Assembly (NCBI GenBank): GCA_016720935.1
Contig: JADKJP010000005.1
Span: 173,216-237,215 of the forward strand
Length of the DNA: 64,000 nt
Source: Bacteroidota bacterium
Lineage (GTDB): Bacteria; Bacteroidota; Bacteroidia; AKYH767-A; 2013-40CM-41-45
Direction: 5' to 3'
Below the pieces are notes generated by a model that was given only the letters and a program-made list of their open reading frames with translations, searched no databases and had not been told where the DNA came from. The translations under genes were made by a program, and so were the position numbers. Shown in pieces: positions 4,327 to 8,535 of this stretch (the first letter of the stretch is position 1; every line of letters begins with the position of its first letter).

Positions 4327-6399
4327 TTAGCCTGCTTCTACCAATGCGTTCGGGATGGAAACATAAAAGATGGTCCCCTTACCCTGTTCACTGACGAATC
4401 TGATCTTACCTTTCATTTTGTCCAGGGCATTCTTTACAATGAACAACCCAAGTCCCGAACCGTTTGAATCTGGATGACCGCGATAGAACATTTCGAACAC
4501 CCTGTTTTTTACAGGTTCAGGAATTCCTTTTCCATTATCTGCTACTTCCAGTTCTATTCCTCTTCCGGTCGCTTCCACTTTAACACGAATCCAGGGGCTC
4601 TGCTGATTGCAATAATTAATGGCATTGTGAATCAGGTTTTGGAAAATGGAAAGCAGAAGTACTTTATCGGTAGTGATCTCAACGCCCTGATCGATCTTGA
4701 TCTCAAAGTTGATGCGATCATAGGTGGGCAGGTGTTTTAGCGAATGTAAAATTTCTTCCACCAGGCTTTTCACATTGATCACACTGATTTTGCTTGTGCC
4801 TTTTCGTGTCCGGGCAAGGTCGATCAAATCAAGCAATGTCCGGTCAAGACGGCGGATGCTGGTTTCCACCATGTCGAAGTATTTATCAATGACTTCATCC
4901 TTGTTTTCCAGTCGGGCCAGATTTACGATTCCCATTACACTTGCAAGCGGACCTTTCAGGTCATGTGATGCTTTATAAAAGAATGTGTCCAGCTCCTGGT
5001 TGGTTTCCAGAAGCTCTTTTTCTGTTTTCTTACGATCTGTGATATCGGTTTGAACTCCCCATGTCCGCATCAAATGTCCTTGTTCAACAATTCCGATATT
5101 GTTGTTCAACATAAAACGGACATTCCCATACAAGTCGAGCTCTTTGGATTCGGCATTACTGATTTTATAATTGTTTTTGATAAAGGAAGTGAGCAATTCC
5201 CTGGTCTTCTCTTCATCATAATTGTTTTCGATATAATAGAAATCCCTGATTTTTCTTCCAACGAGATCATTTGAACTCGAATAACCATACATTCTTGCCA
5301 TAAAATCATTGCATTCAGCAATGATCCCTGAATCGAGGAGCAGTTCGACCTGTTCATTGTGAGGAAGTGTAACCGGAATTGGTTGACGGTATTCAGCTCT
5401 CCAGATTCCGACAGCACTCTGATCAATGAATGTTCTGTATCCTTCTTCCCTTTTCTTTAGTAATTCCTGTGCACTCTTCAACGCGTGAATATCGGCAAAG
5501 ACGACCATGGACCCGATTTTTTCACCATGTTCATCGAGATATGGAGTTCCTGACATCTGCACATAGATCACTTCCCCGTTTAACTTCCGCATTATACATT
5601 CACAACGCACGTCTTTGCCATCAGTAAGACTCCGGAAGAATTCAAAAGGTTTGGTATTGAGTTTATCCTGCGGACTCAGCTCCATGATACTGGTTCCGAG
5701 CAAAGCCTCTCTGGAATATCCGGTGATTTCACAAAAGCGATCGTTAACATATACCAGTTTGTATTCATTATCAACATAAACGAGACCATCGTTCATGTTT
5801 TCCATGAGGGACACATAACGATTCTCCTGGGTCTGTATCTCCTCCTGGTATTCTGTTTTCCGTTTTTGGATCTGGTCCGACAGGAACGCTCCTGAATATA
5901 AAGCGACAAGTGTGATGGTGAATTCGGGCTGCCATTGGTTTGACACCAGCATCATGGCCATCATGAATGTAGTAATGATAAAAATGAAGAAAAGGCTTTT
6001 GAAAAATTTGTCAAAGACCAGGGAAAAAATGAAAATCGATATGGATACCGGTAGCAGGAAGTCGATTTCAAAATTTCTGACGTACGCTACATATACAGCC
6101 CAGAAATGCAAAAGAAAAAGGGATGCATAAGTAATGTTGGGAAGATGTTTCCGGTAGAAACTGCTGTAAAAAGATAAAAAGTAATTCGCGGTAAGAATCA
6201 TGGAAACCGAAAGTCCGGTCATGAGAATATACCCGTCATGGTAGGAGAATTCAAAAATGAAGCCCAGTGAGGTTACAATCACAGATGAGAATACATTCAG
6301 CGACCTCAGGTTCCGGAGTTCCTTGTGAATGATTTTATCTTTGAATGTGCTTAACATGATTTCGATCGGGCTCCGCTCAATGGGAACCAAAAATATCAA
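4327..6399 (-). CDS. Membrane-bound sensor histidine kinase (PAS-PAS-HisKA-HATPase)
   Basis: N-terminal transmembrane segments, PAS S-box regions, H-box 'SHDLKGPLASV', and N/G1/G2 boxes ('NAINY', 'DNGKGI', 'GSGLGL'). No receiver domain. The true start could instead be the Met at about 6357. Confidence 0.85.
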   Translation of the reverse strand: MIFLVPIERSPIEIMLSTFKDKIIHKELRNLRSLNVFSSVIVTSLGFIFEFSYHDGYILMTGLSVSMILTANYFLSFYSSFYRKHLPNITYASLFLLHFWAVYVAYVRNFEIDFLLPVSISIFIFSLVFDKFFKSLFFIFIITTFMMAMMLVSNQWQPEFTITLVALYSGAFLSDQIQKRKTEYQEEIQTQENRYVSLMENMNDGLVYVDNEYKLVYVNDRFCEITGYSREALLGTSIMELSPQDKLNTKPFEFFRSLTDGKDVRCECIMRKLNGEVIYVQMSGTPYLDEHGEKIGSMVVFADIHALKSAQELLKKREEGYRTFIDQSAVGIWRAEYRQPIPVTLPHNEQVELLLDSGIIAECNDFMARMYGYSSSNDLVGRKIRDFYYIENNYDEEKTRELLTSFIKNNYKISNAESKELDLYGNVRFMLNNNIGIVEQGHLMRTWGVQTDITDRKKTEKELLETNQELDTFFYKASHDLKGPLASVMGIVNLARLENKDEVIDKYFDMVETSIRRLDRTLLDLIDLARTRKGTSKISVINVKSLVEEILHSLKHLPTYDRINFEIKIDQGVEITTDKVLLLSIFQNLIHNAINYCNQQSPWIRVKVEATGRGIELEVADNGKGIPEPVKNRVFEMFYRGHPDSNGSGLGLFIVKNALDKMKGKIRFVSEQGKGTIFYVSIPNALVEAG

Positions 6400-7130
6400 A
6401 AATACAGGTAGGTTCTCTTCATTCCTGCCGACTAATCCGATTCAATTCAGAATTGATTCGACATTCAGGTAGGATCGGATGATTTGTTCATCCGGAATTG
6501 ATCCGCATGATGATTCCTATACATATATATGTATAGAACATTCCATTCAGTTTGCACAAAACTTCAAAAAACGTCGATTTCAATTCAGAATGAAAACAAT
6601 TTGGATTATTTCATGATTGCATCAACGATTTGAAAGAGTTCGGTGGAATTGAAGACACATTATTGAATGAACCAAGATCAAATGAAGGATTGATTTCGAA
6701 TGAACGATGAAGTGAGAGGGAAAAATGAATTCATATATGTTGATCAAACAAACAATGTTCATGTGATGAGTTCAAAATCTTAAATCCGATCCAAGTTCGG
6801 ACGAATTTTTTTCCATAATCTGATTTTTCCGCGCTTTTTTTTTGACAATCCGGACGAATCTGATCAAAATTTGTTCTGTTGAGGTACTTTCAAAATGTTT
6901 ATAACTTTGAAAACGTGTTTTGCTTTTCTTCACGTTTTAAAATGCGAAAAGTGAAATCAAAAAGTTGATGATGCTCTGAACACCGCATGAATAAAGGCAT
7001 TCAGAAGATCATGAAAATTATTTTTGAGTGCAAAAGATGTACAATACATGCAAAAAATGTGTACTCCGTAATCAACATTTCATTGTTTAAAAAAATATTC
7101 GTCAAATTGGTGTAACCTTTTTTTATTTCA

Positions 7131-7138
7131 TATGTTTG
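7131..7138 (+). promoter_or_regulatory. Candidate Bacteroidota sigma-A -7 element (TAnnTTTG) upstream of the micro-ORF
   Basis: 'TATGTTTG' lies about 30 nt upstream of the ATG at 7169. The -33 TTG element is only marginal ('aaaTTGg' near 7106). Confidence 0.3.
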
Positions 7139-7168
7139 AGTAGTCATAACAATCAAAAACTAATAACT

Positions 7169-7240
7169 ATGGCAAAAGCAAAAAAAGCTGCTAAGAAAGC
7201 TAAGAAAGCTACTAAGAAAGCAGCAAAAAAGAAGAAGTAA
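7169..7240 (+). CDS. 23-aa Lys/Ala-rich basic micro-protein (histone H1-like / Hc1-like low-complexity peptide)
   Basis: Encodes MAKAKKAAKKAKKATKKAAKKKK*. It is followed 37 nt later by a strong terminator. It sits in a 1.1-kb stretch with no other ORF of 60 aa or more. Confidence 0.4.
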   Translation: MAKAKKAAKKAKKATKKAAKKKK

Positions 7241-7276
7241 GCTAAACGCTTCCCGCTCTCGTAGCGGTCTGCAACG

Positions 7277-7309
7277 GTCCCTCGCTCTAAAGAACGAGGG
7301 ACTTTTGTT
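7277..7309 (+). terminator. Rho-independent terminator
   Basis: 'GTCCCTCGctctaaagaaCGAGGGAC' followed by 'TTTTGTTT'. Confidence 0.7.
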
Positions 7310-7533
7310 TATATAGGGTTCATCCAAATTCTGTATTCGCAGACAATCAAATCCTCTCAACTCAAGTTTTTTTCCGGTAATCTGAACTTCTTTTAGAACA
7401 AATCGACACTAATTCCGAAAAAAAAGCCGGATATCGATATGAAAATTCAAATCAGGCTTTGTTTCGTTTGAACATAAGTACTATTTCGTAATACCTGAAT
7501 CCCGATCAATAAATCAAATCTTACCTTCGTTTC

Positions 7534-8535
7534 ATGATCCGCTGGACGATAGAACCGCTTACTCTCGATTTAAAGTACACCTGGAAGATTTCCAGGAATG
7601 CAACTGATCAGAAAACAAATCTGATCGTGCGAATCAGCGATGGCGAATTCACAGGAGCCGGAGAAGCTGCTCCGAATATTCGTTATCAGGAAACACCGGA
7701 ACTTCTGCTCCAACAATTTGAAAGTTTTATTAAAACTGCAGCAGAGACAAGCATCACAGAAGATATACTCCCAAGGCTCTTTGATCAGTGTGCATTGTCG
7801 TACGCGCTTCGCTTCGCCATCGAATCAGCATGGTTTCATTTTGAATCCAGGCGGAAAAAAGTTCCGATTCATACCTTACTTGGAATTCCCACTCCCGGAA
7901 AGATCGAAACATCTTACACCATTCCAATCATGGATCCGGCATTGATGAAAAACTTTTATCTGGAAAATTCATTGGACAGGTTTCCATTTGTAAAATTAAA
8001 GATCAATGCGGAATCCGGTTACGAAATGACAAGATACCTGGCCTCTTTTTGTAATCAAAAATTAATGATTGACGCCAACGAAGCATATTCGGATCCGGAG
8101 GAGTGCATCTATTTTCTTGAAAAAATTAAAAAATTTCCAATTGAATTCATTGAACAACCAATTCCTTCAGGAAAAGATGAAGAAGCACGGTATCTGAAAA
8201 AATATTGCCCCTTTCCTCTTTTCGCTGACGAATCTATCACACATTCCGCTGATTTTGGATTGTTGCGGGAACAATTCGACGGCGTGAATATTAAACTGAT
8301 GAAAGCGGGAGGATACAAAAATGGAATCGCTTTGCTTTCCGAGGCAAAGAAAAAAGGCATGCGTACCATGATTGGATGTATGGTTGAGACAACATTGGGA
8401 ATTTCATCCGGGATGAATCTTTGCGCGCTTGCCGATTATGTGGACCTGGACAGTTTCCTCCTGGTGAAGGAAGAACCATTCCGTTTGGTTTCAGAAAATA
8501 AGGGTGAGCTGCGGTTTAGTAATAACGCACAGTAA
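7534..8535 (+). CDS. Dipeptide epimerase (enolase superfamily, MR/MLE family; L-Ala-D/L-Glu epimerase-like)
   Basis: Capping domain followed by a TIM barrel, with the conserved 'KLKI', 'IEQP' and 'DESI' metal ligands (K-x-K, D, E, D) and 'KLMKAGG'. Confidence 0.8.
   Translation: MIRWTIEPLTLDLKYTWKISRNATDQKTNLIVRISDGEFTGAGEAAPNIRYQETPELLLQQFESFIKTAAETSITEDILPRLFDQCALSYALRFAIESAWFHFESRRKKVPIHTLLGIPTPGKIETSYTIPIMDPALMKNFYLENSLDRFPFVKLKINAESGYEMTRYLASFCNQKLMIDANEAYSDPEECIYFLEKIKKFPIEFIEQPIPSGKDEEARYLKKYCPFPLFADESITHSADFGLLREQFDGVNIKLMKAGGYKNGIALLSEAKKKGMRTMIGCMVETTLGISSGMNLCALADYVDLDSFLLVKEEPFRLVSENKGELRFSNNAQ

Follow-up and report, generated by a model that had tools for sequence, protein, structure and literature searches.

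Several bacteria make lysine- and alanine-rich polycations that resemble histone H1. In Pseudomonas AlgP and PhaF, chlamydial Hc2 (HctB) and the C-terminal tail of mycobacterial HupB/MDP1, short tandem repeats dominated by Lys and Ala go together with a very high isoelectric point (pI) and an expected lack of order. Their expected mode of action is electrostatic binding to DNA, RNA or polyphosphate. The number of repeats in these H1-like proteins varies among lineages; lengths of 165–237 amino acids (aa) are reported for Hc2 (PMC2848022). Here we describe a micro-gene for a peptide of this kind in a 64,000-nucleotide (nt) stretch of a Bacteroidota genome (GenBank assembly GCA_016720935.1, contig JADKJP010000005.1, positions 173,216 to 237,215 of the forward strand), hereafter the window, in whose numbering all positions are given. 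The micro-gene is a 23-codon open reading frame (ORF) between a histidine kinase gene and an epimerase gene. We found that it is conserved and evolves as a coding sequence, that its promoter, leader and terminator are conserved as well, and that it has never been annotated.

The predicted micro-peptide has the short Lys/Ala repeats, the very high pI and the expected disorder of the known proteins, and its repeat number also varies among lineages (11 length classes, 18–40 aa). For the micro-peptide, electrostatic binding of the same kind is proposed by analogy. In contrast to the known proteins, which are 100–350 aa in length or are tails on folded domains, the micro-peptide would be the repeat alone. 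It also lacks proline, whereas AlgP and PhaF use KPAA and HupB uses PAKK. The H1 tail shares AKKA and KKAAKK strings with the micro-peptide (PMC7261198), and if our proposal holds, the C-terminal domain of eukaryotic H1 and the sperm protamines would share its role as a polycationic counter-ion. However, the micro-peptide contains neither the winged-helix globular domain of H1 (no match to Pfam Linker_histone) nor S/TPKK motifs, and protamines are Arg-rich rather than Lys-rich; common ancestry is not implied. A sequence-only reading of this DNA had called the peptide histone H1/Hc1-like. This description is borne out by the composition but not by homology, as none of the models for AlgP, Hc1, Hc2, H1 or other families matches the micro-peptide. 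By analogy, the micro-peptide is most likely a stand-alone, extreme form of the bacterial H1-like Lys/Ala polycations.

A different set of comparable proteins is found on the ribosome. The proteins bS22, bL37 (mycobacteria), bL38 (Bacteroidia), bTHX and eL41 are, like the micro-peptide, tiny (20–50 aa) and for the most part basic. Annotation passed them over before they were detected physically, and their genes carry strong-expression signals, as does the micro-gene. Unlike the micro-peptide, whose length varies twofold, each of them is constant in length and specific in sequence. The recently found bL38 is a 5.6-kDa protein encoded after bL28/bL33. The possibility that the micro-peptide is bL38 was rejected on the basis of this size and gene position.

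The features of the micro-gene are listed in their order along the DNA.

7070..7086, plus strand: palindrome AATCAACAtttcATTGT followed by an A-tract, centred at about −64 from the predicted transcription start

7111..7117, plus strand: TGTAACC of the −33 region, invariant, followed by a T-rich spacer at 7118–7130

7131..7138, plus strand: −7 element TATGTTTG (consensus TAnnTTTG), with TA and GTTTG invariant in 32 sequences

7143..7168, plus strand: 5′ leader, predicted to be 26 nt, A-rich and unstructured, without a Shine-Dalgarno sequence

7169..7240, plus strand: micro-ORF MAKAKKAAKKAKKATKKAAKKKK, kept in 38 loci at 18–40 aa

7253..7267, plus strand: hairpin 1 of the 3′ untranslated region (CCGCT, loop ctcgt, AGCGG), beginning 12 nt past the stop codon

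7277..7310, plus strand: intrinsic terminator with an 8-bp GC-rich stem, a loop and a U-tract

The micro-ORF extends from the ATG at 7169 to the TAA at 7238–7240, exactly where the sequence-only reading had placed a Lys/Ala-rich ORF, and it specifies 13 Lys, 8 Ala and 1 Thr residues in 23 codons. It is flanked by a PAS histidine kinase gene on the minus strand and by an enolase-superfamily epimerase gene on the plus strand (ATG at 7534). Alignments and public gene calls indicated ATG 6357, rather than TTG 6399, as the most likely start of the kinase, and hence the gene-free gap extends from 6358 to 7533. The gap had been described as free of ORFs of 60 aa or more, which is correct for ATG starts only. 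The sole ORF of at least 60 aa has a TTG start and encodes 66 aa on the minus strand (7160–7360), opposite the Lys/Ala frame and reverse-complementary to it. It was rejected as a gene because the third-position changes of the sense frame are its first positions and because it mirrors the Lys/Ala frame. We also rejected TTG 7136 as the true start of the micro-ORF. This triplet lies inside the −7 box, and the distance between the box and the ATG, which is 30 nt in the window (counted from the final G of TATGTTTG), varies out of frame among relatives (30, 32, 33 or 35 nt). Thus the frame begins at the ATG and not at the promoter TTG, and the leader is not coding.

Relatives were collected with the epimerase as an anchor, which yielded 42 loci from species-representative genomes, all of them metagenome-assembled genomes of uncultured Bacteroidota from wastewater, lakes, rivers or permafrost. 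The gene order of the window, in which glyoxalase is followed by the minus-strand kinase and the plus-strand epimerase, was found in 25 loci, with the kinase absent from one (L020). A Lys/Ala micro-ORF was present in all 25 syntenic loci and in a truncated one (L008), always on the epimerase strand and 100–300 nt upstream of the epimerase gene; L009 has no upstream DNA and was left out. The epimerases of the genome loci that carry the micro-ORF are 54–97% identical to that of the window. No Lys/Ala ORF was found anywhere in the fetched DNA of 15 more distant loci, in which the epimerase is 42–50% identical. Scanning metagenome contigs for DNA encoding MAKAKKAAKK identified 12 further members in the same context, for a total of 38 loci (26 genome and 12 metagenome). 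The corresponding viral scan returned no family member, only unrelated proteins with the same ten residues, and a phage origin was rejected. The micro-gene is limited to one family-level clade of uncultured Bacteroidota.

The family peptides begin with MAKAKKA in all loci except L008 and L014, where the start is MATKKKA. After the first Met they contain only Lys, Ala, Thr, Val and an occasional Arg, and AKK, ATKKK and VAKK repeats are found across the family. The stretch from −100 to +30 is 78–97% identical between the window and its relatives, compared with 62–72% for the epimerase coding DNA and approximately 50–65% for the other spacer DNA. Thus, the micro-gene unit is the best-conserved DNA in the locus, and its conservation across relatives is far above chance.

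The pattern of change within the ORF is that of a protein-coding sequence. Within groups of equal length, the variable columns are distributed as 3, 6 and 27 over codon positions 1, 2 and 3 (binomial p = 3.8e-7 against an even spread), and 24 of the 30 variable codons differ only synonymously. With the exception of one contig (L078, see below), neither a frameshift nor a premature stop occurs in 21 distinct family ORFs, which include 11 length classes. What is kept in synteny is therefore the ORF itself, beyond mere A-richness, and with a synonymous substitution pattern. This conservation and the codon pattern led us to reject a chance ORF, and we consider it very probable that the micro-gene is real and translated.

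Codon use in the micro-ORF is also distinctive. GCT and GCA account for 93% of the Ala codons in the family and for all 8 in the window micro-ORF, whereas across 36 other ORFs of the window their share does not exceed 80%, with a median of 56%. AAG makes up 43–46% of the Lys codons in the micro-ORF family versus 22% elsewhere, and this raised use of AAG holds A-runs to 7 or fewer. Among the ORFs of the window, the next most similar codon bias is that of biotin carboxyl carrier protein, which is an abundant protein. The codon bias of the micro-ORF fits selection for expression, although it does not prove it.

The promoter-like motif reported by the sequence-only reading is present as TATGTTTG, but its consensus alone is no commoner than chance, as TAHHTTTG occurs 35 times in the window with 36.7 occurrences expected. 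The combination of TGTAAC followed by TAnnTTTG is found only here in the 64 kb. Farther upstream, the segment 7070–7095 contains the palindrome AATCAACA-N4-ATTGT and the A-tract. The palindromic site AATCAACAtttcATTGT is kept in 32 of 32 distinct family upstream sequences and occurs once in the window, with matches containing 2 mismatches at chance level elsewhere. It may serve the micro-gene promoter as an activator site or a UP-like element. The TAnnTTTG element, the T-rich tract upstream of it and the predicted 26-nt leader, within the expected range of about 20–40 nt, agree with a Bacteroidota sigma-A type promoter, the deviation being a G at the fourth position of the −7 box.

Transcription in Flavobacterium johnsoniae starts 4–5 nt after the −7 element, and leaders in this organism average 33 nt (PMC6847099). 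The same spacing would place the start of the micro-gene transcript at 7143–7144 and give a leader of 26 nt. In the alignment of 32 sequences the conserved leader reads AGTAGTCATAAC...AAAAACTAAAAAC, and the leader is predicted to be unpaired in the fold. Adenines at −3, −6, −12 and −13 raise translation and are associated with high ribosome density in F. johnsoniae (PMC6847099). Of 19 distinct leaders in the family, 19, 18, 19 and 19 have adenine at the respective positions. Judged from these signals, the micro-gene is probably highly expressed.

The sequence-only reading had also proposed a hairpin and T-run terminator downstream of the ORF, and our analysis bore this out. The stem pairs GTCCCTCG (7277–7284) with CGAGGGAC (7295–7302) across a 10-nt loop and is followed by the T-run TTTTGTTT (7303–7310). 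Fold z-scores against shuffled sequence were −2.6 and −2.9, and a simple terminator scan missed the hairpin solely through its 8-nt loop limit. In 26 distinct 3′ regions, 99% of the cells in the terminator stem were paired and five of its eight pairs contained compensatory changes. Hairpin 1 was nearly invariant in sequence, with 94.6% of the cells paired and one compensatory pair. Taken jointly, 97% of the cells of the two hairpins pair and six pairs are compensatory, values that none of 500 shuffles reached; when the partner strands were slid as a control, pairing fell to 40–55%. RNAalifold independently recovered both helices from the 26 sequences and lengthened the terminator by pairs between its U-tract and the upstream A-tract, which can form in most relatives. 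It predicted no competing or antiterminator helix.

The distance from the terminator to the epimerase gene is 30–50 nt in most relatives (about 20 loci) and 225 nt in the genus of the window. In the approximately 20 loci no TAnnTTTG box lies between the U-tract and the epimerase ATG. The sequence TTACCTTCGTTTCATG at 7518–7536, right before the epimerase ATG in the window, is kept in the closest genomes, in contrast to the remainder of the 225-nt spacer. The TAccTTCG-N4-ATG within it could be a −7-like box for a leaderless epimerase mRNA, that is, a separate promoter. The name dipeptide epimerase that had been given to the product of 7534–8535 is approximate, as Pfam assigns only MR_MLE_C. The best NCBIfam match is the N-acetyl-D-Glu racemase DgcA (198 bits; cut-off 400), followed by L-Ala-D/L-Glu epimerase (118 bits; cut-off 343).

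In four public contigs with the same sequence as the window, the interval separating the kinase and epimerase genes is without a gene call; one of them belongs to NCBI GCA_016721635.1, which, like L011, L012 and L019, comes from Danish activated-sludge plants. By exact look-up, neither 20 peptide variants nor the TTG-extended 34-aa form was found in a collection of 15 billion protein sequences. Searches of Pfam and NCBIfam (both at E up to 10) and of PDB sequences with the peptide gave no match, and a HMMER search with a 40-aa family member scored none of 3,204 word-sharing candidates, as expected for pure low complexity, since the composition filter of HMMER discards all candidates for such a query. 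Literature searches retrieved only analogues (AlgP, PhaF, Hc2, the HupB tail and the H1 C-terminal domain) and no description of the peptide itself. At permissive E-values, the best Rfam match for 6300–7600 was a mammalian long non-coding RNA model without structure (E = 0.63), and the tRNA at 1986–2059 was the only element of the whole window to pass the gathering thresholds. Thus no Rfam family accounts for the region.

The predicted peptide without Met has 22 residues, a mass of 2354 Da, compared with 2485 Da if Met is kept, a pI of 11.1 and a charge of about +13. Its mean hydrophobicity is −0.61 and its helical hydrophobic moment 0.44; it has no signal peptide and no residues able to form a hydrophobic core. 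In the mechanism that we propose, a Bacteroidota housekeeping-type promoter, comprising TGTAACC at −33, the T-rich spacer, TATGTTTG at −7 and the upstream palindrome with its A-tract, would start a transcript near 7143. The A-rich leader with its four favourable adenines would allow efficient Shine-Dalgarno-independent initiation at the ATG, and hairpin 1 and the intrinsic terminator would stop transcription at approximately 7310, giving a monocistronic mRNA of about 165 nt. Some transcription may pass the terminator and supply the epimerase gene. Met is probably removed, leaving the 22-residue product, which would stay in the cytoplasm as a disordered polycation since it has neither a hydrophobic core nor a signal peptide. 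The peptide would bind polyanions electrostatically and independently of sequence, chiefly DNA or RNA and possibly polyphosphate. Present in abundance, it would be a counter-ion by which nucleic acid is condensed or shielded.

The independently transcribed micro-gene for a polycationic peptide envisaged by the sequence-only reading is supported by the syntenic ORF, its synonymous substitutions, the kept promoter and the covarying terminator. On balance, we favour the view that the micro-gene is real, has its own promoter and terminator, and makes a charged peptide that coats DNA or RNA, with polyanion binding the weaker link in this proposal. Several points weigh against it. Most relatives have no room for a canonical epimerase promoter, and hence the unit is not clearly independent of the downstream gene. 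The −7 box of the family is always TA[T/A]GTTTG, with an invariant G at the fourth position, whereas G is almost never found at this position in F. johnsoniae promoters (PMC6847099). As the micro-gene occurs in only one uncultured clade, model organisms offer no findings to transfer. A homologue among characterised proteins could not be demonstrated. Lastly, the DNA of the ORF, leader and promoter is identical in the window and its four closest relatives (L001, L002, L003 and L012), even though the epimerases of these loci are 74–97% identical. Synonymous sites are thus frozen among these five genomes, so that selection also acts on the nucleotide sequence of the ORF, which could mean a role at the RNA level as well as codon selection.

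The peptide might instead be a ribosome-bound micro-protein, a clade-specific small basic protein of the bS22/bL37, bL38 or eL41 type that fills a groove in rRNA. Its size and charge match those of the known tiny ribosomal proteins, its promoter, leader and codon bias resemble those of a highly expressed gene, and new small ribosomal proteins have recently been reported for Bacteroidia (PMC7797042, PMC11851116). However, ribosomal proteins keep fixed contacts, whereas the length of the peptide ranges from 18 to 40 aa through changes in repeat number at constant composition, which favours a non-specific binder. We found no match to a ribosomal protein in NCBIfam, Pfam or the PDB, and the neighbouring genes encode a kinase and an enolase-family enzyme rather than ribosomal components; a ribosomal role is therefore unlikely. 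The layout of the locus also agrees with that of trpL- or hisL-type attenuators, as in every case the ORF immediately precedes the epimerase gene, shares its strand and is separated from it by the terminator. Translation of a leader peptide, by responding to the supply of Lys or Ala tRNA or by stalling on Lys runs, would then decide termination at 7277–7310 and control the epimerase. A single amino acid makes up 57% of the ORF, and the 12 nt between its stop codon and hairpin 1 are few enough that a terminating ribosome would touch the hairpin. Moreover, L020 keeps the micro-gene and epimerase together although the kinase is absent, and in the approximately 20 loci with a short gap and no −7 box the epimerase may depend on read-through. 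Attenuation is nevertheless quite unlikely, because no antiterminator or alternative pairing is conserved, RNAalifold giving the two hairpins only, and because the peptide sequence is conserved from the N-terminus, beyond its codon content. The 225-nt gap and the conserved TAccTTCG-N4-ATG block in the genus of the window suggest a separate promoter, more distant epimerase genes lack the ORF, and conservation of the promoter region far exceeds what a minor metabolic enzyme would lead one to expect. The epimerase itself falls in the dipeptide-epimerase/N-acyl-amino-acid racemase group, with all matches below cut-off, and has no clear link to Lys supply. We hold it to be very unlikely that the ORF is a translated sensor in which the speed of the ribosome over Lys codons sets termination at 7277–7310 and thereby gates a murein-peptide or N-acyl-amino-acid epimerase. 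If true, ribosome-mediated transcription attenuation would be described for the first time in the Bacteroidota, which are blind to Shine-Dalgarno sequences.

Two further explanations dispense with the nucleic acid-coating peptide in other ways. The transcript of about 165 nt might act as a non-coding small RNA (sRNA) through its A/G-rich single-stranded part and its two 3′ hairpins, with the ORF incidental. An unstructured 5′ half followed by two 3′ hairpins is typical of sRNAs, hairpin 1 is kept by sequence rather than by covariation, and the frozen synonymous sites of the five closest genomes would also agree with a functional RNA. Between distant groups, however, synonymous changes concentrated at the third position of codons prevail, neither the ATG nor the stop codon nor the optimal initiation context varies, and Rfam contains no matching family, which makes this explanation highly improbable. 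As a short and strongly cationic peptide with a hydrophobic moment of 0.44, the product could also be a secreted or membrane-active antimicrobial peptide, and similar Lys/Ala strings occur in papers on designed antimicrobial peptides. Yet it has no signal or leader peptide, Ala is its only hydrophobic residue, its mean hydrophobicity is negative, and no transporter, immunity or modification genes are found nearby. An antimicrobial function is scarcely credible on these grounds.

The remainder of the gap contains additional features, of which those without a strand are symmetric or were not assigned to one.

6388–6395 and 6397–6404, minus strand: likely kinase promoter, two overlapping boxes TATTTTTG in the block GGGAWYCAAAAATATYAAAAATAC, which is conserved among relatives

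6517–6536: palindrome CTATACATATATATGTATAG, perfect over 20 nt, kept in the five closest genomes only

6567–6600: block AAAAACGTCGATTTCAATTCAGAATGAAAACAAT, kept in the five closest genomes only

6895..6909: distal island TGTTTATAACTTTG (TTGTTAATAACGTTGA in relatives), some 89 bp upstream of the mid-point of the 6976–7004 repeat

6976..7004: inverted repeat CTGAAC-N18-TTCAG, located at −193 to −196 from the micro-ORF ATG in most family loci

The islands at 6895–6909, 6976–7004 and 7070–7086 keep fixed distances from the micro-gene ATG and promoter throughout the clade, but not from the kinase. The outer two contain a common AAATCAAC in opposite orientation, each about 89–90 bp from the centre of the middle repeat, such that the arrangement is symmetric. 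The middle repeat is unique in the window and is possibly part of the control region of the micro-gene. Its 13-nt loop GCATGAATAAAGG (6982–6998) is reverse-complemented as CCTTTATTCATGC in L004, L006 and L025 with unchanged flanks, which is a small in-place hairpin inversion. In the window, the distal island overlaps a promoter-like TTG-N20-TAACTTTG at 6879–6909; because the −33 part is not conserved in a second group of relatives, a promoter role for this segment is doubtful. From its sequence, the region of the three islands looks like a protein-binding control region of the micro-gene rather than of the kinase.

Both palindromes pointed out by the sequence-only reading exist, the second being formed by AAAACGTG and CACGTTTT at 6910–6917 and 6931–6938, but the latter is not conserved. 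That reading had also seen 6400–7130 as room for an sRNA or for kinase control. This idea is weakly supported, as there is no Rfam match or unusual folding in the region and the islands track the micro-gene promoter. The segment 6885–7095 folds no better than its shuffles (z = −0.8). Small ORFs in 6400–7130, for example one of 42 aa at 6987–7115, were rejected since they are not conserved.

In the metagenome scan, the first ten residues MAKAKKAAKK also begin AAPKK-type ORFs of 35–68 aa and the N-terminal tails of SWIB-domain proteins. This common N-terminus was set by the search pattern, and common ancestry is not shown. The AAPKK-type ORFs (L048, L051, L056, L064, L066, L067, L075, L077, L115 and others) are each followed by a hairpin resembling a terminator, and upstream of some of them there are TAnnTTTG-like boxes. 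They differ from the micro-gene in their 5′ and 3′ untranslated sequences and in containing proline. None of ten such small ORFs that were looked up occurs in the collection of 15 billion proteins. In one metagenome contig of 1.2 kb (L078:475–828), the family promoter and the first approximately 24 codons continue in frame into an unrelated ORF of 117 aa that is coiled-coil-like, within phage-like sequence. Either the low-complexity repeat led to a chimeric assembly or the fusion is genuine.

The micro-gene and the longer AAPKK-type ORFs indicate that low-complexity micro-genes are systematically missed by gene callers. The unusually conserved architecture of the micro-gene promoter makes it a candidate strong promoter for the Bacteroidota, a poorly tractable phylum. 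Should the peptide be made, it would rank with the smallest and most extreme nucleic acid-binding proteins known from bacteria, as essentially a free histone H1 tail of 22 residues, and it would be an easily synthesised candidate for the neutralisation of nucleic acid charge in bacteria without many classical nucleoid proteins.

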